A stretch of DNA of 52,137 nt from a virus (IMGVR_UViG_2778261534_000002), one strand, 5' to 3'; positions 2,102 through 49,300 are shown, numbered from the stretch's first letter. Notes: generated from the sequence alone by a model not told the origin. Program-made: numbers and translations.

Positions 2102-4031
2102 CAATCCTTTACGAATTAATATTCAGTCTACTTTTGCTGATACGATCCCCGGCTATATGCCAAGTCGCTGGTCTTCAGAAGAATTAAGCGAAGATGACCT
2201 GATTTTTGAGGCGGCGACCTTAGAAGATATTGAGCTTGCCTATATGGGCAATGAAATTCTGGTTGTGTCTGACGAAGCTATGTTTGAGTCCATAACTACA
2301 ACCAGAATTCGGTTAGCTCAAACAATGCGAGCTTTCGTCCGTGCGCTGAATCGTGGCCTGAATGGTACGAATATTATGGCAGGGACTGATGAAGCTGGGA
2401 CCGATGAAAATGGACGTAATTGTATTGGTGGTGCGATTATCGGTCGTGTACGTCGGGTAGCTAATATCCCTGTTTTGACCGCGCAGATACCGCTTACTGA
2501 CGGGCAGAGTACAAGCATAATTTTCCACTCTCCAACAGCTGACGGGGCAAAAATAAAGAGTAACGACGAGCTTGTTGCATTTCAGTTTTTACTTAATAAG
2601 CGTAACGTAACTCACGTTGTCGCCCCGATTGGTGGGAGAGATGTTTCTTTAAGCCAGGTATGCCAGGCGCTATCTAATTTGATTGAGCGTAACAGCGAAA
2701 AATTTAAGAAAGCAAAAGAGCGCCAGGACAAAATGAAGGCAGATATTGAGAGTTATCTCAATGAAGCAGATAAACTGGCAGAAGAACGGTCAATAATGAT
2801 TGATCAGGTGGAAGTTGCGCAACGTGGGCTGACTGAAAAGCGTGCTGCTCTTACGGAGATGCAAAAAAAACTTGATGCCCAGAAAGCTATCAATGAGGAG
2901 TTACAAGCAAAACGCGATAAATTGTTGTCTTCTAAAGGAGAAAAAACGAAAGAACGAGCGTTTAGTGACCAGCTGCGACATGTAAAACATAATCTTGCCA
3001 TTGACGGAAAAACAGTGCTGGATAATGGCGCTGAAGTTAATTATGTCACGTCCGGCAGTGACAATTTCGTTACGATAGTAGCACCTGAAGGTAAATTCAG
3101 TATTGATGCCAGTGCTGTCAAAGGAGGCAGTTTGGCAGATGCTGCAACCAAATTACTTAAAGCCTACCGAGAGCATAACGCAGAAAAATATAAAGTTGAT
3201 TTGTTACCAGGCCAGCTGGAAGACTCCGAACCACCACAGACGGACCCCGAAACAAACCCAGTATCACAACCAGAGAGCCAAGATGTAGGTAAATACCACT
3301 ATGCACTTCAATCTCGCCCGGCTGGTGTTGGTGCTGTTCCGGATGGAAATAAAGCCGTGCTTGATCGTCCTGACCAGGCTGATCAGTATTACGAATATGC
3401 TCGTCACGGTATCATTACGTATGACCGTAAACTGACAGATGAAGAAGTCAGCCAGTACGAGTTGCTTTATCTTCCTGATGAAGATGAGCTGAAAGATTTT
3501 GCAGGCCAATTGGTTGCGTCCAGCATGTCGAAACATATTGATGGCTATGTGGACCTGTTTGGCAGTGACCTGAAAACATTCAAGGCGCAAGTGAAAATTC
3601 TTTTCCGCAAAGCGTTTCCAAACGTGGCGTATCCACTTAGTGATGGGGAGAACCTTTTCATTATGGACGTGTATAACGCCCTTCAAAATCATTCAAGCGA
3701 AGTAAAAACAGAGCATGTGGTTGAGCCAGAATCACAACCACAACCACAACCACAACCAGCACCAGAACAGGAGTCGGAGCCAGAAGAAGCGGGTGAATCA
3801 GCAAGTGAAGCTGATCAGGAAGCAGATAAAGCGCTGGAGTACCTGAAATCCGTGCCGGAGCAGTTTACATCCCGCGATCTGACGGTCATCAGTGCTGAAC
3901 TTGATCATGTGCAGGAAGCAGCAAACGCTCTAATCAGTGCAGGTCGATACGACGAGAACGAAGCCACTGTGGGTGCAGCAGTTGACTACCTGATCAATAT
4001 TCTGGCTGAAATTCAGCAGGGAGGTGTTTAA
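2094..4031 (+). CDS. DarA-like capsid-internal antirestriction protein
   Basis: 645 aa from ATG 2094 (GGAGG SD; ATGATTAA overlap with upstream stop); size and operon position match P1 DarA; coiled-coil region and PQ-repeat linker. Confidence 0.45.
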   Translation: MINNPLRINIQSTFADTIPGYMPSRWSSEELSEDDLIFEAATLEDIELAYMGNEILVVSDEAMFESITTTRIRLAQTMRAFVRALNRGLNGTNIMAGTDEAGTDENGRNCIGGAIIGRVRRVANIPVLTAQIPLTDGQSTSIIFHSPTADGAKIKSNDELVAFQFLLNKRNVTHVVAPIGGRDVSLSQVCQALSNLIERNSEKFKKAKERQDKMKADIESYLNEADKLAEERSIMIDQVEVAQRGLTEKRAALTEMQKKLDAQKAINEELQAKRDKLLSSKGEKTKERAFSDQLRHVKHNLAIDGKTVLDNGAEVNYVTSGSDNFVTIVAPEGKFSIDASAVKGGSLADAATKLLKAYREHNAEKYKVDLLPGQLEDSEPPQTDPETNPVSQPESQDVGKYHYALQSRPAGVGAVPDGNKAVLDRPDQADQYYEYARHGIITYDRKLTDEEVSQYELLYLPDEDELKDFAGQLVASSMSKHIDGYVDLFGSDLKTFKAQVKILFRKAFPNVAYPLSDGENLFIMDVYNALQNHSSEVKTEHVVEPESQPQPQPQPAPEQESEPEEAGESASEADQEADKALEYLKSVPEQFTSRDLTVISAELDHVQEAANALISAGRYDENEATVGAAVDYLINILAEIQQGGV

Positions 4032-9898: not shown

Positions 9899-10084
9899 CT
9901 GCATCATCGACTGAAGTCATCCATTGCTGAAATTTTTAGTTGATCTTCCATGTTTTCAGGCTTATATTCATGCCGTCGTAGCAAATTCTGCGACCGGGTT
10001 TGACAGCCTGAATACTTACGCGGACAACCGCACATTTCCGATATTGCGGTATTTTTGTGTCCGTAAAACCACGTTACGCCCGAA

Positions 10085-10180
10085 TTATGGTGGGGCGTGA
10101 TGGGGAGGCTTCGGCCTGCTGGTTTCGTAAGTGCCAGTCTGTCAACCCTGTCACGTCCTGCCACCTGTTTGACAGCGGGT
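10085..10180 (+). ncRNA. c4-like antisense RNA candidate
   Basis: structured leader upstream of icd-like gene; TCGTAAGT (10125-10132) is complementary to ACTTACGA at the icd RBS (10197-10204); GGC-ttcg-GCC tetraloop hairpin; boundaries approximate. Confidence 0.3.
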
Positions 10181-20822: not shown

Positions 20823-22046
20823 GTGACGGGAACAGCAATGAGTCAACACACTGATACTTCTAATCTGGAAATTATCTCGACAGCAATTGAAACGCTGCGC
20901 ACACAAATCGCTCTTATACAGAAACGGAATCCGGGTGATGACCTGTCAAAGCGACTGCACGAGAGTGTCATTGCCACTACAGATAACCTGGTGGCGGAAA
21001 TCAACAAGCTGCTTGATGATGGGGCAGTTGATTACAATAAGCTGGTGGATCAGTTTGAGGAATACCAACAAGCCGTTAATGATGGCTTGATCCGTTTTTC
21101 ACAAGTCACAGGCGTATCAGCGACAGTTGAAAGCCTGGGTGATGCAGTTAATCAATTTGCCGCGAATATGCGTAATGAGATCGGCAATCTGGAAGCGCGT
21201 CTTGAACAGGCAAATACACTGCGTAAATCTGCCGAAGCCGATTTGAACCGTTACAAAAAAGACTATCCGCCCAGCCTGACAAAGCGGCTGGATGTTGCGG
21301 AGAAGGATAACCGCGCGCTGAAAAGAGAGCGCCGGGAACTAAAAGAGCGTTTAACCAAGCTCAATCAGCAATGCATTGATTATCAAGGCGAAGGCGTCAC
21401 ACTGCGTAAAAAGTTGGCTACAGCGCAGAGCATTATCGAAACATTAAAGCGAGAGTGCTCACAGCTTGGTCACGATCTGAACCGTGCTTGTGGCATGGGA
21501 CAAAGACCAGAGACATTTCCACTCATGTATGATGGAAGGGATGCCATTGCCTACATCCATGAGTATCCGCACGGCCTGGTTGCGGAAACAGGGCAGCGTG
21601 GCGAAGCACTGTTGACGGCTAATTACCATCAACAAATCAGAACCAATCGCCTGTTAACGATGGATGTGATCCCATCGGTATGGGGAACGCCGCTTTACTA
21701 TCGCCTGCCGGGCTTCGAAAAGGACTGGAATACCGACATAGACGAATGTCTCGCAGATAAAATTATGGCGTACCTGGAGACGGATTTTCCGCGCTTATAT
21801 CGCCGGATTATGGACTCTAAGGATGCGCCAATCGATGAATTAAAAATGCGTCCGGAGACGCTGGAGGCAATCAAGCAGACGGAGTTTGATACTGTATTCA
21901 GTGTGGCCTGCATTCCAAGCTGTTTCCATGAAAGCATCCCGTTCATGCAAGGAGATCGTCGTCAGGAAATCATTGACGCTTGCCGGGTATGGGCGAACGA
22001 ATGGGATAAGAAGAATGGGGGTGTAGAAGATCTTTATGGGAAATAA
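20823..22046 (+). CDS. hypothetical protein, N-terminal coiled coil
   Basis: 407-aa ORF (probable start ATG 20838); coiled-coil N-half, Cys/His-containing C-half; no recognizable catalytic motif. Confidence 0.5.
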   Translation: MTGTAMSQHTDTSNLEIISTAIETLRTQIALIQKRNPGDDLSKRLHESVIATTDNLVAEINKLLDDGAVDYNKLVDQFEEYQQAVNDGLIRFSQVTGVSATVESLGDAVNQFAANMRNEIGNLEARLEQANTLRKSAEADLNRYKKDYPPSLTKRLDVAEKDNRALKRERRELKERLTKLNQQCIDYQGEGVTLRKKLATAQSIIETLKRECSQLGHDLNRACGMGQRPETFPLMYDGRDAIAYIHEYPHGLVAETGQRGEALLTANYHQQIRTNRLLTMDVIPSVWGTPLYYRLPGFEKDWNTDIDECLADKIMAYLETDFPRLYRRIMDSKDAPIDELKMRPETLEAIKQTEFDTVFSVACIPSCFHESIPFMQGDRRQEIIDACRVWANEWDKKNGGVEDLYGK

Positions 22047-22047
22047 T

Positions 22048-22062
22048 GTGTTAGAAATCTAA
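22048..22062. promoter_or_regulatory. operator-like 15-bp motif
   Basis: GTGTTAGAAATCTAA. Confidence 0.35.
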
Positions 22063-22203
22063 AATCACAATTCGAATGTATTGATTGTGGAGATAACTTA
22101 ACATAGAATTTTCCTTGCTGGTGGGCAGTACCCACGTTTCGCTTGCTGGGCTTGATAGTCACTTATTGGTTATTGTTCGCCCACCAGCATTTAACAAATT
22201 AAA

Positions 22204-22218
22204 GTGTTAGAAAAGGAT
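22204..22218. promoter_or_regulatory. operator-like 15-bp motif
   Basis: GTGTTAGAAAAGGAT. Confidence 0.35.
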
Positions 22219-22699
22219 GGTAATGCAAGAGCACGCTTTGGCACCGTGCAGGCCAAAGTTCAGCAGGTTTAGTGCGGAAAGTGGTTTCAGAGAGAGCACT
22301 TTGCGGAGTAAACGACAATACATGTTGAGCCACGGAAGGTCTTTTTAAGGTGTTCATTGATGATGGTCCGGCAGAGAGTAACGGTACATGCTGCATCTAA
22401 TCATCAATGCACATCTTCAACATTAAGGAGGCATAGGGATTTTTGTGGCGGTTACCTTTTGCCCTGAGTCTCCTTAATGTTGCGGTAATGCACCTATGCG
22501 GATGTGGCCTTGCATTGTGTCTTGAAAGAATGGGGTAAGGCCGGGGATATCCCCAGGGGGAGGCACCCCCGCTGCAACGAACAGCCACAGACGGCAGTCG
22601 AGTGATGGAAACGTGTAAAGACTTTAAACCTCGTTACGGCTGGCGTGGCAAACGCGACAACCGAGACAGAGCGGTGACGGGCGGAGAGAGTGCCGCATC

Positions 22700-22820
22700 A
22701 AGAAAGAAGCCGACTTGTGATCCCTTTCTGCGGGCATTTGAAAGTGAATCCAGCTCAGGCAGTCGGCTTCTTTCTTGTGTGAGATGTAGCGTATTTGCCC
22801 ATCTTCGGGTGGGCTTTTTT
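22700..22820 (+). ncRNA. candidate structured small RNA
   Basis: perfect 16-bp inverted repeat AAGAAAGAAGCCGACT (22700-22715) / AGTCGGCTTCTTTCTT (22761-22776) around a 45-nt loop, then hairpin GCCCA-N8-TGGGC plus TTTTTT (22797-22820). Confidence 0.3.
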
Positions 22821-23280
22821 AGGGTTTTCGTCATGGTTAGCGACTTTGCGGCGGTTTAGAAACCGACCATTAAAGTAAATGCAAACGATGATCTGATGAT
22901 GGTAGCGGCCTAAGAAGCCAGACGCCACGGGGTATGAGTCGTCCCCCGTCAAAAAATCGACCGCAGAGTGTCCCCGTCTGTGTATTAGGGAACGGGGAGG
23001 CATAACAGGCAAGGGCGCTGGTGTGATTAACCAGATGAATGAGAAGGGTCAGGTCTTTCTGGTCAGCGCCCTTACCTGTTACGTCCCTCCCGCGTAACAG
23101 CCATTGATTAATGGCTTTCTGGGATAACATCCTACTACGGGTATATCCCGTCATGCTGAAGGCGCTAATCACGCTGGAAGCCAGGGTTGTGCATCCCCTG
23201 TTACCGAATTGCAGCCAGGGCGCGGTGCGCCGAAAAGCATACGGAGGTGGAAGCCCTCGCCGGAGACGTACCCGGCAAGT

Positions 23281-23357
23281 GATGGTGTAGCTCAGTAGGA
23301 TAGAGCAGCAGCCTTCTAAGCTGTCGGTCGGTGGTTCGAATCCACCCACCATCGCCA
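23281..23357 (+). tRNA. tRNA-Arg (anticodon UCU)
   Basis: 77 nt; 7-bp acceptor stem GATGGTG/CACCATC, anticodon loop CTTCTAA, T-loop GGTTCGAATCC, 3' CCA. Confidence 0.9.
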
Positions 23358-23362
23358 ATTTA

Positions 23363-23449
23363 GGGGAGTTAGTCCGTAGGGGTAGCGGGGTAGACTGTAA
23401 ATCTACTGTCATTGCGACTCGGGTGGTTCGACTCCATCACTCCCCACCA
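23363..23449 (+). tRNA. tRNA-Tyr (anticodon GUA), long variable arm
   Basis: 87 nt; acceptor GGGGAGT/ACTCCCC, anticodon arm GTAGA-CTGTAAA-TCTAC, variable-arm stem GTC/GAC, 3' CCA; D-arm atypical. Confidence 0.7.
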
Positions 23450-23453
23450 AATT

Positions 23454-23529
23454 GCCGGTTTAGCTCAGTTGGTAGAGCGCCTGCCTTGTAAGCAGGATGT
23501 CAGCGGTTCGAGTCCGTTAACCGGCACCA
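23454..23529 (+). tRNA. tRNA-Thr (anticodon UGU)
   Basis: 76 nt; TAGCTCAGTTGGTAGAGC D-arm, anticodon loop CTTGTAA, T-loop GGTTCGAGTCC, 3' CCA. Confidence 0.9.
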
Positions 23530-23580
23530 ACACAACAGGTAAGGGCATTCTCCCTTATGGGGCTTGGCTTAAATGCATCG

Positions 23581-23609
23581 AGTGCTCTTACCGTTGTGAT
23601 GAAGTGCAG
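23581..23609. repeat. 30-nt spacer repeat, copy 1
   Basis: AGTGCTCTTACCGTTGTGATGAAGTGCAG; related copies at 23811 and 24112. Confidence 0.5.
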
Positions 23610-23724
23610 CTCTTTGAAGCAACCAGAAGATAAGCATCTGGCTTCACAACATAAACCGCAGGAACGACCAATAAACGGTAGTCCGTATGGAGAACACCCC
23701 GTTGAGGAAGAGGCCTGGCCGGAA

Positions 23725-23741
23725 CCGTAACCGGCACCACA
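23725..23741. repeat. duplicated tRNA-Thr 3' end fragment
   Basis: CCGTAACCGGCACCAC repeats the 3' end of tRNA-Thr (CCGTTAACCGGCACCA, 23514-23529) about 210 nt downstream. Confidence 0.45.
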
Positions 23742-23810
23742 ACGTTGAGAACACTGGCGTAACGGGGTCATATCCCAATCTATGAATAAATGTTGCGTTG
23801 CAGCGTGACA

Positions 23811-23844
23811 ACCAGTGTTCTCAACATTGTGGTGAATGCACAGG
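23811..23844. repeat. 30-nt spacer repeat, copy 2
   Basis: CCAGTGTTCTCAACATTGTGGTGAATGCACAGG; its first 16 nt are also the reverse complement of AACGTTGAGAACACTGG at 23741-23757 (large stem-loop). Confidence 0.45.
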
Positions 23845-23931
23845 CTGATGTGCCGCAACTACAGTAGTGCGCGCTTTGCGGGGCTTGCTACAACCCTGTG
23901 TCGGAGTTCAGCACCGACCATCACAATCACT

Positions 23932-24018
23932 GGAGAGTAGGGAGCATGGTGCTCAAGCGGTCTTGAAAACCGTCCCATTGCGCAAGCGATGATGGTTCGA
24001 TTCCATTACTCTCCGCCA
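23932..24018 (+). tRNA. tRNA-Ser (anticodon UGA), long variable arm
   Basis: 87 nt; acceptor GGAGAGT/ACTCTCC, anticodon loop CTTGAAA, T-loop GGTTCGATTCC, 3' CCA. Confidence 0.85.
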
Positions 24019-24111
24019 GTGCAACGTTAAGAGTATTTGGCTAATTAAGCGAATGCCGGAAGCAGAACCGGATCACCAAATGCGTACAGGCGTCATCGCC
24101 GCCCAGCCAGC

Positions 24112-24142
24112 CAAGTGCTCTTACCATTGCGGTGAATGCGGC
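24112..24142. repeat. 30-nt spacer repeat, copy 3
   Basis: CAAGTGCTCTTACCATTGCGGTGAATGCGGC. Confidence 0.5.
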
Positions 24143-24281
24143 TAAGCGCACGCGGAACAGTTAAAACAATCCTCCTTAGTGGTTAAGTCAAACATCCCGG
24201 CGTTAATTGTTAACTGGTTAACGTCACCTGGAGGCACCAGGCACCGCAGCTTTTTTATTCGGTAAATAATGGAGTGAGAGG

Positions 24282-24518
24282 ATGCAGAACAATCCGAACA
24301 AATGTCGAACGCTATGGGTGCGGTTATATATTTATGTCGTCCTCTGTTTGATTGTGTCACTGGTTCTGTATGTTTGGCTTTTGCCAAATATGATCTCATC
24401 TGACAGCACAATACTTGTATTGTTGGGAGTCCTTCTCGCGCTCATTTACCCGGCTTTTGCAGTAGTCTTTTTTCGTGAAAAAACCAGGAAATTGATTAAT
24501 GAAAAAAACGTTGATTAG
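24282..24518 (+). CDS. small integral membrane protein
   Basis: 78 aa, two hydrophobic helices, SD GGAGTGAGAGG before ATG; overlaps start of the SPFH lipoprotein gene. Confidence 0.45.
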   Translation: MQNNPNKCRTLWVRLYIYVVLCLIVSLVLYVWLLPNMISSDSTILVLLGVLLALIYPAFAVVFFREKTRKLINEKNVD

Positions 24519-25326
24519 TGCAGCGATTATTTTTGGTTCTTTATGTCTGACCGGATGCGATCGGGTAGAGCCAGGTAACGTAGGGATCAAAGTAAATAAG
24601 CTGGGGGATGATAAAGGTATCGGTGAAGTAGTTGGCGTTGGTCGCTACTGGACAGGCTTGAATACTGAAGTTTATATCTTCCCGACCTTTAAGCAAATGA
24701 AGACATACGATGAGCCGTTCAGCTTCCAGATGAGCGACGGAACAACCATTGGTTACCACATCGGCGTAGCCTACAAGGTTGATCCAGCAAAAGTCACAAC
24801 GGTATTTCAGACCTATCGCAAAGGTGTAGATGATATTACTGATACCGATCTACGCCAGAAGGTTGCAGATGCTCTGAACCGGTTAGCCAGCAAAATGACC
24901 ACCGACAAATTTATCGACGGTGGCAAATCTGAATTGCTTGATGCAGCCCTTAAAGACATTCAGGAAGAAATGACGCCCATCGGTATTCAGGTAATGAGCC
25001 TCTCATATGTGGGCAAGCCGGAGTACCCGCCAACCGTTATCGACAGCATTAATGCCAAAGTCACGGCGAACCAGAAAACTCTGCAACGCGAGCAGGAAGT
25101 CAAGCAACGCGAAGCAGAAGCCAACATGCTGCGCGCAGAAGCTGCTGGACAGGCCGATGCCATTCGCACAAAAGCCCAGGCTGAAGCTGATGCCATTCGT
25201 TTACGCGGTGAGGCTCTGCGCCAGAACCCCGGCGTTATGGAGTTGGAAGCGATCAACAAATGGAACGGAACGCTACCGCAGTATATGACCAGTAATACCG
25301 CTGTTCCGTTTGTTCCGGTGAAATAA
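24499..25326 (+). CDS. SPFH/band-7 (prohibitin-like) lipoprotein
   Basis: 275 aa; signal peptide with lipobox LTGC; SPFH-like core followed by Ala/Glu-rich coiled-coil tail. Confidence 0.65.
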   Translation: MKKTLISAAIIFGSLCLTGCDRVEPGNVGIKVNKLGDDKGIGEVVGVGRYWTGLNTEVYIFPTFKQMKTYDEPFSFQMSDGTTIGYHIGVAYKVDPAKVTTVFQTYRKGVDDITDTDLRQKVADALNRLASKMTTDKFIDGGKSELLDAALKDIQEEMTPIGIQVMSLSYVGKPEYPPTVIDSINAKVTANQKTLQREQEVKQREAEANMLRAEAAGQADAIRTKAQAEADAIRLRGEALRQNPGVMELEAINKWNGTLPQYMTSNTAVPFVPVK

Positions 25327-25339
25327 CCAAATAGATAAC

Positions 25340-25471
25340 ATGATGGAATTTTGGACGTTTGCCGACAAGAACCCTTGGTGGACATTTTTATTTCTGCTGG
25401 TGGTTGCATATGGGGTCGAGCAAGCAGCAAAAGCCTTACGCGGTCCTGGCAAAAAGCGTAAGCGGAATTAA
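25340..25471 (+). CDS. small membrane protein (43 aa)
   Basis: MMEFWTFADKNPWWTFLFLLVVAYGV...KKRKRN; single TM helix with basic tail; below the ORF-track length cutoff; found by eye. Confidence 0.3.
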   Translation: MMEFWTFADKNPWWTFLFLLVVAYGVEQAAKALRGPGKKRKRN

Positions 25472-25480
25472 CAGTAATCT

Positions 25481-25556
25481 GGCCCTTTAGCTCAGTGGTT
25501 AGAGCTGGCGACTCATAATCGCACGGTCACCGGTTCAAGTCCGGTAGGGGCCACCA
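25481..25556 (+). tRNA. tRNA-Ile2 (anticodon CAU, lysidine type) or tRNA-Met
   Basis: 76 nt; very close to E. coli ileX-type sequence as recalled (GGCCC.TTAGCTCAGTGGTTAGAGC...CTCATAA...GGTTCAAGTCC...GGGGCCACCA). Confidence 0.85.
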
Positions 25557-26010
25557 TATTTGGTTGTAACACGGCGTCTGGCACATGCGTCGTTAGCGGT
25601 CTGGTGACGTTAAAGGGGTATCTTTGACTCTTGCTCAGGCAAACGGACCAGGTAGCCGGAATGTGCAAGCCCCGATAACAGTGGCGGACCGAGGACTCAC
25701 CATCCTGGCGATTCGGTGTGACAGCCGGAAGAGCACGGCGCACAACAGGAAAAGGCGTTTAATTAGCGTGAGCGCCGTTTCCGTTGTGGTAATTGCGGCT
25801 ATGCGCTCGTGACGAAGCCATTTTTATTCACTACGTTCTGATAAGTGACGTCGCCAGGAGTGGCTAACCTGGCAGGTGGAGGCACCACCGCCACAACTCC
25901 TTTCAATTCATCATATAGCCGCTCAGGCTGTACCCCTTAATTAATACGAATTTACGACATCACTACCGGCACTTCCGGGGGATAGTCGCGCGTGTAAAAA
26001 AGGAGACGTT

Positions 26011-26586
26011 ATGTTAATGGCGAACGATAACGCATATGCAGAAGAAGATCTCATTTTGAGTGACTTCATAGGGAAGCGGGAACGCTGGACCCAAAAGCGA
26101 GAGGAACTTTACGCCTCATTAGTTCGCAAAGGCGTCAATATCGAAACCGCACAGAGCGGCGATATGACAGTGGTAAGCGTTGGATTGCACGGTGTAAGCG
26201 TGTCAGCAATCAATCATGAGCCATACGTTGCGTTATCCGAGTCAATGGTAAGGTTAGTTAAGTTCCTGAAGTACACAGAAGCGAATAATGTAATCATTGG
26301 CAAAAAGAATATCCCTTTTTCCTCGGCTTTTTACTGGATGATGAAAGGGCTTGATGCCCGGCGGACATCATGGCCTAAAGGGAGCTATATATCGATGTTC
26401 CGTGGCAGCATTGGCAGCAAAGAAAAGCTCTTCGAATTCTTGCCGGAAGAGGCATTCGATATTGTGGAAGGGTGCGATGTGATGGTGATGCCTCGCCTGG
26501 TAATGATGAATGGGGATTTACAGGCGCAGACAGACTGGTTTGCAACTGGTGTGGATATTATCGCGACTGACTGGGAGGCTTTCTGA
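26011..26586 (+). CDS. hypothetical protein with C-terminal DUF2829-like domain
   Basis: 191 aa; C-terminal ~90 aa carry KGLDARRTSW ... IIATDWEAF signature. Confidence 0.45.
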   Translation: MLMANDNAYAEEDLILSDFIGKRERWTQKREELYASLVRKGVNIETAQSGDMTVVSVGLHGVSVSAINHEPYVALSESMVRLVKFLKYTEANNVIIGKKNIPFSSAFYWMMKGLDARRTSWPKGSYISMFRGSIGSKEKLFEFLPEEAFDIVEGCDVMVMPRLVMMNGDLQAQTDWFATGVDIIATDWEAF

Positions 26587-44505: not shown

Positions 44506-45254
44506 TCTTCAAGGGATTTCTCCGCATATTCACCGGACAGGCCATCAAGCGGATGCGGTTCATTAGCCAACTCTTCTTTCGCTGACAAAATCATGCGTGT
44601 AACGTCGAAAACTTCACGCAAAGACTTATTGATAAATCCGTGATTGAACGCAGCAGCAAGACGGCTTGCGGTGTAGTTAATCCCCTCGTTGCGTGCCTCC
44701 GCACGTACTTCAGCCAGGAAAGCGTCGGTGGCCGGAGTTTCAGGAATCCGTCTCCTCATCAGTTCTATTGCATGATTGAACCCGAAATCTTCCGCGAGAG
44801 ATACGTCATCCATATTGTCATTGTCATCCTCAATATCCCGTGATTCTGGAATTGCAGACTTTATTCCCGCATTCTCCGCCGCCAGCGCCGCGCAATTACC
44901 CTCCAGCTCTGCAATGCGCTGTTTTGCGGCATCAAGTTCAATCGATAATTTTTCCAACTGCTCTTTATGCTTCTTGTATTCCTGATATGCGTGCCAGGAC
45001 TGACCTTTGCGCACACTATCAGTAATATCAGTAATCTGTTCTGGTGTTAGCGTGGTCAGTGGCTGTGCTGGAAAAATCATCACTTGCCCGGCATCCCAAT
45101 CAAAACCCACCTGAATTGACTGAACCTCAACTGATGGTGTTGAACCGATGCGACCAGGCGAATGAACAACGATCGTTACATCCATATCGCGACGATGGCT
45201 GTGGTTGTTGGACAAAATACGATTCACCAACTCAGAAAATTTGGAAAATTTCAT
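44469..45254 (-). CDS. coiled-coil paralog A (Ea22-like family)
   Basis: 261 aa from ATG 45254 (ATGA overlap with upstream gene); shares coiled coil ([15 protein letters not shown]) and C-terminal block ([19 protein letters not shown] ... EQIRKG) with 45574..46242 and 46239..46748. Confidence 0.5.
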
Positions 45255-49025: not shown

Positions 49026-49131
49026 AAATACAGACTGTTGCGCCCTGGCATTATCGTGGGGTATATTTCTACGGCACCTTAGAAAAACGGGTGCCGGGAT
49101 TGGAACCCCGGATAATGTCAAAGGCGACACA

Positions 49132-49153
49132 GACGCCGAAAGCGTCTTTTTTT
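49132..49153 (+). terminator. rho-independent terminator
   Basis: GACGC-cgaaa-GCGTC followed by TTTTTTT. Confidence 0.65.
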
Positions 49154-49169
49154 GTGTCATGCCATCGCA

Positions 49170-49300
49170 CAGCCATACGTAGCGTTTAGCTCAGAGATCA
49201 ATGGTAGTGCTGGCTGGGCTGCCGAAAGGCAGGCCGGTTCCCTTTGACGCCGGTAGTTCCAACCCAGTCAGTGCTACCGCCATTGAGATTGGAACCTCAC
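49170..49300 (+). ncRNA. c4-like antisense RNA candidate (module 2)
   Basis: structured leader upstream of second icd-like gene; CCTTTGAC (49232-49239) is complementary to GTCAAAGG at the icd RBS (49311-49318); CTGCC-gaaa-GGCAG hairpin; boundaries approximate. Confidence 0.3.

Follow-up and report, generated by a model that had tools for sequence, protein, structure and literature searches.

Long hairpins selected for pairing in sense RNA punctuate the five-tRNA array of a P1/D6-type phage-plasmid

Why do the spacers of a phage transfer RNA (tRNA) array carry repeats? The question is raised by a viral DNA of 52,137 nucleotides (nt), IMGVR_UViG_2778261534_000002 (this whole stretch is called the window, and positions are counted along it), which is a segment of a phage-plasmid of the P1/D6 type (D6/P1 family) with a real array of five tRNA genes. 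A sequence-only reading had listed three copies of a 30-nt repeat in the spacers, together with a second copy of the tRNA-Thr 3′ end, and took them for duplication or recombination scars or for shared processing signals. The array is embedded in a ~3-kb, mostly untranslated RNA island at about 22.8–25.8 kb, and the repeats are arms of long hairpins, a structure that is selected for pairing in the transcribed sense RNA and is not a scar.

The three repeats are real, as 26-nt copies at 23581, 23814 and 24114 with 69–85% identity (a pattern search gave two matches against 0.00 expected), but they are not direct repeats: each copy pairs with an upstream complement and is the 3′ arm of a hairpin (H1, H2 and H3). 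The 5′ arms and two further hairpins, at 22995–23090 (H0) and 25741–25789 (H4), are absent from the list of the sequence-only reading. The hairpins of the island are the following, with z-scores of the folds.

22995–23090, plus strand: H0, core arms 23001–23020 and 23063–23083; fold −46.6 kcal/mol, z −5.55; included in the covariation set.
23531–23598, plus strand: H1, arms 23531–23549 and 23581–23598, the 3′ arm being repeat copy 1; z −4.40.
23615–23645, plus strand: small hairpin UGAAGC..GCUUCA, found also in Sashavirus and, in the P22-like phage SPN9CC, in the leader that immediately precedes gene N.
23735–23852, plus strand: H2 with its tail, arms 23735–23757 and 23812–23834 (23 nt, 96% complementary), the 3′ arm being repeat copy 2; z −5.48.
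24017–24134, plus strand: H3, arms 24017–24040 and 24111–24134, the 3′ arm being repeat copy 3 and reading ..CUCUUACCA..; z −3.32.
25724–25812, plus strand: H4 with a minihelix (minihelix 4, 25724–25739), arms 25741–25759 and 25771–25789, and the tail GGUAAUUGCGGCUAUGCGCUCG; z −1.87.

Matches to the arms with up to three mismatches are confined, within the 52-kb window, to 23001–25757. H1 starts 1 nt past the CCA of tRNA-Thr, and both H1 and H3 begin at, or no more than 2 nt from, a tRNA CCA end. The family consensus is 5′ CACAAC-A-GGUAAGRGCAUU / 3′ RAGUGCUCUUWCC-GUUGUG, usually followed by GGUGAAUGC and a small hairpin; the tail of H2 is GGUGAAUGCACAGGCUGAUGUGC, and the loop of H3 carries a 65-nt core (24043–24107). 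The stems are near-continuous, with 17–24 pairs and a length of 19–24 bp throughout, in line with the ~20 bp or more of double-stranded RNA looked for in a substrate of RNase III, while the loops range from 23 to 236 nt across the family. No Rfam family matches H0–H4, and Rfam matches to microRNA families (mir-142, mir-577 and others) were discarded as artefacts that any long hairpin gives. Some loops contain isolated T arms (GAGGGUUCGAAUCCCUA) and hairpins like anticodon arms, as in the viral contigs L033, L043, L057 and L113 and in the P1 H1 loop (P1 locus 2958–3010); such pieces are either decayed tRNAs or tRNA-like inserts inside a conserved stem.

Selection on the stems was assessed with 37 unique arm pairs, taken from the window, six P1-like phages, other phages and viral contigs and oriented by the strand of the tRNA or of a tag-like reading frame described below, and with a covariation alignment of 29 stems from different phages. 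In the alignment 93% of the cells pair (an inflated figure, see below), 16 of the 19 pairs are changed on both sides, and none of 500 shuffles reaches the observed values; controls with a slid register give 40–54% pairing. The stem is more stable on the sense strand in 36 of the 37 unique stems (mean −26.2 vs −19.7 kcal/mol, Wilcoxon p = 1.2e-7); summed over the set, the sense strand forms 81 G·U pairs and the antisense strand 12. Substitutions in the UGCUCUU core are matched by changes in the partner arm, and the copies in PY54, Moogle and rV5-like phages keep the loop or tail with a wholly different stem sequence. Because of the compensatory substitution and the sense-strand G·U bias, the hairpins are not direct-repeat scars; pairing is maintained in the transcribed strand, as is expected of sites for RNase III.

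Are the hairpins peculiar to this locus? The repeats do occur in relatives, the arms being present in P1, P7, D6, RCS47, SJ46 and Ro157. The H1 region (23530–23609) is 92.6% identical in Klebsiella phage MK54, and the H1 loop is matched in FelixO1-like phages (Moogle), while H2 with the minihelix ahead of it is shared with PY54 in the same architecture and with a different stem sequence. The H3 loop core is 98.5% identical to lambda 44866–44930, between orf-64 and S, and 88% identical to a segment after tRNA-Ser in rV5-like phages; just upstream of this match lambda has a full hairpin of the family. The lambda modules lie between Q and S, and in chromosomal lambdoid prophages the modules occupy the unannotated gap between antiterminator and holin genes. 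A pattern scan over one genome per species found the hairpin in Klebsiella, Citrobacter, Kluyvera, Pantoea, Enterobacter, Brenneria, Rouxiella, Raoultella and related genera. In all cases examined, the element is co-oriented with local transcription or comes with its own promoter and tRNAs, MK54 being the own-promoter case. The hairpins are members of an apparently undescribed structured-RNA family in lambda and many other enterobacterial phages, and no description of the hairpins or of the tag-like element was found in the literature on the P1 ban operon and its tRNAs, P1 RNA-seq, phage tmRNA or RNase III in the lambda late leader.

Two observations stand beside this distribution. The MK54 locus (1301–1869) is a self-contained cassette, placed between two tail genes and antisense to them, with a promoter, a tmRNA-like module, a hairpin, tRNA-Arg(UCU) and tRNA(CAU), and the MK54 record annotates neither of the two tRNAs. 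Matches of 60 nt, the length of the lambda copy, also turned up on very short contigs of ~1x coverage from Pseudoxanthomonas, Algoriphagus, Bradyrhizobium, Kitasatospora, Enterococcus and others (L135, L141, L143, L148, L161–L168 and others); as judged from match length and contig size, these are probably lambda DNA contamination and not spread of the family.

What, then, is the second copy of the tRNA-Thr 3′ end? It belongs to another element of the island, a 5-bp GC minihelix, which is found in four copies, often followed by (C)ACCA, ahead of tRNAs or hairpins; minihelix 4 (25724–25739) lies just before H4, and the other three are as follows.

23259–23276, plus strand: minihelix 1, GCCGG-AGACGUAC-CCGGC, ending 4 nt ahead of tRNA-Arg.
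23718–23739, plus strand: minihelix 2, GCCGG-AACCGUAA-CCGGC followed by ACCA, which is the supposed copy of the tRNA-Thr 3′ end and abuts H2.
23900–23918, plus strand: minihelix 3, GUCGG-AGUUCAGCA-CCGAC, ending 13 nt ahead of tRNA-Ser; a GCCGGAGUUCAGCACCGGA variant is found in viral contig L113.

The match to tRNA-Thr is exact over 12 nt (23518–23529 and 23728–23739) and reaches 15 of 16 with a one-base gap, but it is not a one-off duplication, being a member of the minihelix family. Taken alone it could be chance, as an estimated ~0.25 such pairs are expected in 2.9 kb; the pattern CCGGA-N7-CCGG, however, has three copies, all on the plus strand and within 800 nt, where 0.25 are expected in the whole window. 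Another minihelix-like element is located in the H3 loop. The same minihelix stands ahead of the hairpins of PY54 and Sasha, where ARAGORN finds no tRNA in ~3-kb loci around those hairpins, and MK54-like contigs have GCCGGAGAUCAGCACCGGC-CACCA-CAAC before the next hairpin or tRNA. The minihelix is thus a conserved element and not a one-off scar. Minihelix 2 retains the first 5 and the last 15 nt of tRNA-Thr, and, judging from this likeness, the motif may have been derived from a tRNA-Thr.

Recombination has nevertheless left its marks at these elements. In a breakpoint comparison of the array with six relatives, breakpoints fall at 23549, where the H1 5′ arm ends and RCS47 has an extra H1; at 23735/6, where minihelix 2 joins H2 and Ro157 carries an insertion of 161 nt; at 23850 and 24155, the ends of tails; and at 25740–25742, where H4 begins and the P1-type backbone, which leads to ban, parts from the D6-type one. 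A deletion in SJ46 from 23782 to 24107 fuses H2 to the H3 3′ arm into a hybrid hairpin, and the Ser cassette is bounded by 23925 and 24107–24116. Since the breakpoints lie at conserved elements, tRNAs and genes are swapped as cassettes. Of the origins proposed earlier for the repeats, scars therefore fail, recombination survives in the form of cassette exchange at conserved elements, and processing signals come nearest.

The genes that these elements separate are, in the first place, the tRNA genes. ARAGORN returns exactly the five that the sequence-only reading had placed here.

23281–23357, plus strand: tRNA-Arg(UCU); ARAGORN, Rfam tRNA model 72.1 bits.
23363–23449, plus strand: tRNA-Tyr(GUA), class II; ARAGORN, Rfam tRNA model 41.9 bits.
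23454–23529, plus strand: tRNA-Thr(UGU); ARAGORN, Rfam tRNA model 74.9 bits.
23932–24018, plus strand: tRNA-Ser(UGA), class II, with a short D loop, G73, G1-C72, G2-C71 and A3-U70; ARAGORN, covariation, PGAP.
25481–25556, plus strand: tRNA(CAU); ARAGORN, Rfam tRNA model 64.7 bits.

Four of the five (Arg, Tyr, Thr and CAU) pass the gathering score of the Rfam tRNA model, 29; of Tyr and Ser, the two candidates on which the reading had staked the array, Tyr is accepted and Ser is not reported at that score. The best Rfam match of the Ser gene is the tRNA-Sec model (44.6 bits, below 47), and in the D6 record tRNAscan-SE gave no amino acid for its homologue. Five homologues (among them those of D6, P7, the rV5-like EmilHeitz and the FelixO1-like Moogle) share a class II cloverleaf fold in which double changes preserve 9 of the 27 pairs, and PGAP/RefSeq labels the gene tRNA-Ser in NZ_CP050999. 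The tRNA-Ser(UGA) is treated as real on the basis of these compensatory changes and this annotation. Its G73, G1-C72, G2-C71 and A3-U70 agree with the serine identity elements of E. coli. The tRNA(CAU) is, by direct sequence comparison, identical to P1 trnI, which the P1 record labels an ileX-like tRNA-Ile2, just as had been read, and the set as a whole does differ from the Asn/Thr/Ile2 set of P1. The sets of relatives are Asn-Thr, Asn-Tyr-Thr, Arg-Thr or Arg-Tyr-Thr, with or without Ser, and the tRNA-Tyr is also found in Ro157c2YLVW and rV5-like phages. The tRNA-Arg(UCU) has a chimeric make-up. Its acceptor and T arms match those of P1-family tRNA-Asn fully or almost fully, the Ro157 copy being closest, while the D loop (A20) and the anticodon arm are Arg-like. 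From the sequences, this sharing of arms looks like identity switching by the swapping of internal arms.

The description of the tRNAs as largely rare-codon decoders suits AGA, AUA and ACA, suits UCA weakly and does not suit Tyr. In the open reading frames (ORFs) of the window, AGA, AUA and ACA are used 5.6, 9.7 and 14.2 times per 1000 codons, ~2–2.7x the E. coli values, UCA is at 1.4x, and UAC is not enriched. Divergence of the anticodon loops as an evasion of nucleases was rejected, the Tyr and Arg loops matching the E. coli sequences. The D6 and Moogle records place the tRNA features on the minus strand of reverse-complemented loci, while in the ARAGORN output they share the plus strand with their neighbours; either the tRNA rows were left unflipped or the records are wrong.

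The island opens with a leader that resembles part of a transfer-messenger RNA (tmRNA). This module spans 22823–22990, between a terminator-like site and H0, and consists of the following parts.

22823–22880, plus strand: 5′ part of the module, without an acceptor strand; its GGGUUUUCGUCAUGG is similar to the GGUUUCGACAGGG segment found in complete two-piece tmRNAs of phages.
22881–22913, plus strand: tag-like frame ANDDLMMVAA and UAA (GCA AAC GAU GAU CUG AUG AUG GUA GCG GCC), with UAAAU just before it.
22927–22961, plus strand: H-type pseudoknot ACGGGG..GUCG..CCCCGU..CGAC, covarying in homologues.

Like permuted tmRNAs, the module has a GCA resume codon in the context UAAAU|GCA, a 10-codon tag of the form AN(D/E)...(L/M/V)A(A/V)A with a hydrophobic end in ..AA and a stop, and a pseudoknot after the tag. 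Unlike them, it has no tRNA-like domain (TLD): ARAGORN, Rfam and inspection of the 5′ region detected no acceptor stem with G3·U70, no T arm and no free 3′ CCA in the window module. The Rfam model tmRNA_permuted gives 24.1 bits (E = 0.013, corrected for all families) against a gathering score of 47, and ARAGORN calls no tmRNA in the window, P1, MK54 or the contigs lacking the acceptor, Moogle excepted; there it reads the homologue as a tmRNA tag, but the ‘tmRNA*’ call spans three tRNA genes, which makes the acceptor piece doubtful. A complete tmRNA in the window was rejected, neither program supporting it.

Homologues of the module are widespread. A scan of viral contigs for the resume motif gave 75 loci with 10-residue tags, a constancy of length that is partly ascertainment, as the filter retained 10-codon frames only. 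One group consists of complete permuted tmRNAs by ARAGORN, with both halves of the tRNA-like domain and related tags; the second, which is P1-like, MK54-like, lambdoid and Moogle-like, is devoid of the acceptor strand and has tags such as ANDDLMMVAA, ANEEMYLAVA, ANDEQFLAVA, ANDDVVLMAA, ANDDLMLMAA and ANDNVFLAVA. More than 10 tag variants from viral contigs keep the 10-codon frame while their sequences vary. The pseudoknot starts 12–14 nt past the stop in 13 of 14 diverse homologues, with six different stem-2 pairings (GUCG/CGAC, CCGA/UCGG, CCAG/CUGG, CUCCA/UGGAG, CUAG/CUAG and CCAA/UUGG). The module is also unannotated in P1 (P1 locus ~2330–2500), MK54, Moogle and many viral contigs. A tmRNA consisting of the TLD only, from mycobacteriophage DS6A, is reported to inhibit the host tmRNA (PMC4131195, PMC11915505), and the window module, which has the coding part and no TLD, is its converse. 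Truncated forms are discarded by the pipeline of the tmRNA database (PMC11915505), and no description of a coding-part-only form was found in the tmRNA literature, which covers phage tmRNAs and the TLD-only form of DS6A.

How does the island sit in its genome? The ~3-kb segment around the array is 100% identical to ~92-kb non-mobilizable plasmids of E. coli and Salmonella, and is 89–96% identical, piecewise, to the phages D6, P7, P1, RCS47, SJ46 and Ro157c2YLVW, being syntenic with the P1/D6 tRNA region. Among 5426 complete E. coli genomes, 1093 contain part of the array, and 159 of these contain 80% or more. The gene order is D6-like, with a pmgS-like ORF upstream of the array and orf6, orf5, an lpa-like gene and pacA downstream. 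The closest known system, the ban-operon tRNA region of P1 (trnA-trnT ... tciABC-trnI-ban) with its D6 equivalent, is alike in synteny, tRNA-Thr, tRNA-Ile2, H0–H3 and the tmRNA-like leader. It differs in that the first tRNA slot of P1 holds Asn and that of the window Arg(UCU) plus Tyr, that the window, like D6 and P7, has the Ser cassette, that an SPFH operon replaces the tciABC of the P1/D6 region, and that the backbone of the window, unlike that of P1, is D6-type (pmgS-like upstream, lpa/pacA downstream) and has no C1 operator that could be found. In the P1 record, plp and upl run over the hairpins on the opposite strand, and neither the hairpins nor the tag is annotated. The remaining features of the segment are the following.

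22081–22109, plus strand: sigma-70 promoter-like site TTGATT-17-TAGAAT, downstream of the pmgS-like ORF; a possible start of a noncoding transcription unit.
22797–22822, plus strand: hairpin and U run like an intrinsic terminator, closing an upstream unit like a small RNA (sRNA); P1-type homology begins at 22794.
24128–24248, plus strand: STnc100/PasD-like leader (Rfam RF02076), below threshold, upstream of the protein cargo.
24282–25471, plus strand: protein cargo of three ORFs, namely a 78-amino-acid (aa) ORF (24282–24518), a 275-aa SPFH/Band 7 protein (24499–25326) and a 43-aa ORF (25340–25471).

The promoter-like site is the sole consensus match in 22000–26100, and as shuffles average 4.6 such matches it is weak evidence. 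The cargo slot after H3 alternates among relatives between tciABC and the 78-aa/SPFH/43-aa operon, P1, P7 and D6 having tciA/B(/C); the 275-aa protein matches Pfam Band_7 at 9.7e-31, and the homologue of the 78-aa ORF in Ro157c2YLVW is annotated ‘membrane protein’. The leader in front of the cargo aligns to positions 31–147 of the STnc100 model, including UGGUGAAU and a 3′ CACC-GG-AGGCACC-GGCACC, at 39.4 bits (E = 2e-6), which is below the gathering score of 47, so it is not counted as a member; the P1 counterpart scores 33.4. STnc100 family members are located in prophage or bacteriophage regions (bioRxiv 10.64898/2026.05.13.724894). In P1, CRISPR interference found trnT, plp, upl, tciABC, trnI and ban nonessential (PMC10695390), which fits accessory cargo.

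Several side observations concern the same neighbourhood. The ~700 nt of noncoding sequence after the promoter-like site (22116–22822) hold a perfect 16-bp hairpin (arms 22700–22715 and 22761–22776) and the terminator-like end, and are a candidate sRNA. The terminator-like site is homologous to the 3′ end of a P1 region annotated ‘dicF-like’, and it is the only part of the segment to match that region; identity with DicF was rejected, as no Rfam DicF match appears up to E = 10 in 22000–23300, nor up to E = 1 in P1. A minus-strand ORF (23517–23858), the equivalent of plp, runs antisense across the hairpins, as do the ORFs annotated Plp (‘putative lipoprotein’) and Upl in P1 and RCS47 over the structured region (P1 locus 2910–3479). 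The window ORF was rejected as a gene, overlying hairpins as it does and having no Pfam match, and opposite-strand ORFs of the plp/upl type are probably not genes. Right after H4, a 191-aa ORF (26011–26586) has a C-terminal domain like Tad2 (Thoeris anti-defence 2; Pfam E = 1.1e-9, 39.1 bits vs a cut-off of 25), and its D6 homologue is annotated ‘hypothetical protein’. Elsewhere in the window, two C4 antisense RNA genes (9962–10168 and 49074–49284; 69.6 and 77.1 bits) suggest two immI-type immunity modules; c4-a1b1 target sites accompany one of these genes, and an isrK-like RNA the other.

What could the hairpins do? The reading that is preferred, and whose chances we see as evenly balanced, is that they serve RNA processing or insulation and, in addition, act as recombination joints. 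In this model, the whole island would be transcribed as one long, mostly untranslated precursor, in which the hairpins, of about two helical turns, would be processing or insulating sites specific for double strands. These sites would set tRNA blocks, small RNAs and downstream mRNAs apart from one another and free the tRNA 3′ ends that abut the stems, and fragments so released would gain from the minihelix-plus-CCA units tRNA-like 3′ ends that resist exonucleases. As DNA, the repeated arms would offer homology patches for the exchange of tRNA and gene cassettes between phages, and the tRNAs would mainly supply decoders for codons that the plasmid over-uses (AGA, AUA, ACA and UCA). RNase III would be the most likely enzyme, though naming it specifically is a tentative call, somewhat short of even, made from stem length, covariation and analogy. 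Stems cut by RNase III are known from the rrn transcripts, where they flank 16S and 23S rRNA and spacer tRNAs, from T7 early mRNA, from the lambda N-leader and from the intervening sequences of 23S rRNA. The hairpins resemble them in having ~20 bp or more and in punctuating a polycistronic precursor that contains tRNAs, and resemble the 23S intervening sequences in combining a conserved stem with a variable apical part; they differ in sequence, being unrelated to the known sites, and in that the stems abut tRNA CCA ends directly.

A number of points weigh against this reading. The terminator-like site at 22797–22822 sits between the sole promoter-like site and the array, and the promoter match is below chance expectation, so a single precursor is uncertain in this backbone. 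No P1 C1 operator is found within three mismatches near the array, which does not fit control by Pban and C1 as in P1; C1-operator control of the array was dropped, given also the D6-type backbone. The fold of H4 is barely better than shuffles (z −1.87), and the hairpin set was gathered by arm similarity, with a few members found by eye, which inflates the paired percentage and leaves the compensatory changes unaffected. For the decoder role, tRNA-Tyr is out of line with rare-codon decoding.

Of the alternatives, the one that survives best, though it is unlikely, is that the hairpins and minihelices are tRNA-like or derived from tmRNA and are handled by RNase P, 3′ trimming exonucleases and the CCA-adding enzyme, yielding either stable small RNAs with an effect on translation or trans-translation (titration of SmpB being one example) or a split phage tmRNA with the tag leader. 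The upper stem is like a 7-bp acceptor stem followed by ACC(A/G), literally CUCUUACCA in H3, but the stems have no G3·U70 and the ACC is base-paired in the lower stem; T arms (GAGGGUUCGAAUCCCUA) lie in the loops of P1 H1, L043, L057 and L113, while most loops, including all five in the window, have none. The (C)ACCA after the minihelices, the conservation of tag frame and pseudoknot, and the many viral contigs in which a hairpin 3′ arm directly precedes a tmRNA-like module, as the acceptor piece of a permuted tmRNA precedes the coding piece, all speak for such an origin, and the inhibition of host tmRNA reported for DS6A offers a parallel (PMC4131195, PMC11915505); against it are the lack of an ARAGORN tmRNA in the window, P1 and MK54 and the 24 bits against 47 for tmRNA_permuted. 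Similarly doubtful, as read from the sequences, is the further idea that a TLD-less tmRNA derivative of enterobacterial phages (lambda-, P1-, N15- and FelixO1-like) functions together with acceptor-like hairpins and CCA minihelices, in a multi-piece trans-translation or as a decoy of tmRNA-SmpB or of RNA decay, and that the scaffold would also be a mobile platform for tRNA and moron cassettes.

It is quite improbable that the repeats are neutral duplication or recombination scars between tRNA cassettes and have no function, as the sequence-only reading had proposed. Cassettes do get shuffled, as the SJ46 hybrid hairpin, the additional RCS47 copy and the Ser cassette show, some loops hold decayed tRNA pieces, and the P1 region is dispensable in the laboratory (PMC10695390), but mere scars would not keep 16 of 19 stem pairs through double substitutions, bias G·U pairs strongly to the sense strand, or show, as PY54, Moogle and rV5-like copies do, entirely different stems around the same loop or tail.

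More improbable still is that the hairpins are mobile or site-specific recombination sites, like attC or miniature inverted-repeat transposable elements, that move tRNA and gene cassettes as DNA. With integron attC arrays they share imperfect inverted repeats with variable centres (loops of 23 to 236 nt) between exchangeable cassettes, with breakpoints at element edges; unrelated phages carry the elements, and the MK54 copy is an insertion antisense to late genes. However, inspection revealed neither GTTRRRY/RYYYAAC cores nor target-site duplications, orientation always follows transcription, and the G·U bias indicates selection of the structure in sense RNA. The loci examined have no dedicated recombinase next to the elements, and their annotation tables list no integron integrase, although no search aimed at integrases was made; the elements are found only in phage, plasmid-prophage and prophage records, the chromosomal ones in prophage late-gene regions, and the pattern scan gave Enterobacterales only, apart from the lambda-length matches on tiny contigs. 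On these grounds, namely no cores or target duplications, constant sense orientation and the RNA-type G·U bias, the mobile-element explanation was rejected.

The faintest prospect, that the 3′ arms are boxA-type (NusB/NusE) antitermination signals against Rho across a long untranslated operon, as in rrn and lambda nut, draws on the UGCUCUUAC of H1 and H3 and the UGCUCUUUCC of most family members, which resemble rrn boxA (UGCUCUUUAACAA) and lambda nutR (CGCUCUUAC), and on the need of a 2–3 kb untranslated transcript for protection from Rho, but it was rejected because the UGCUCUU core is paired and covaries away and no single-stranded GCUCUU(U)A is offered, the motif being locked in a stable stem whose partner strand is transcribed first, and being replaced with pairing preserved in H0, H2, H4, P1 H1, L057b, L058b and L105b, so that the structure and not the boxA sequence is conserved.

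P1 and lambda are much studied, yet the hairpin family and the tag module are unannotated in both, in the ban-operon leader of P1 and in the late leader of lambda between Q and S. If they do serve as processing sites, the hairpins would explain how long phage precursors give up their tRNAs, small RNAs and mRNAs, why close relatives differ in their tRNA repertoires, because cassettes swap at the joints, and from where prophage sRNAs of the STnc100/PasD type originate. If the TLD-less tmRNA is active, it would be a new route by which phages act on ribosome rescue.

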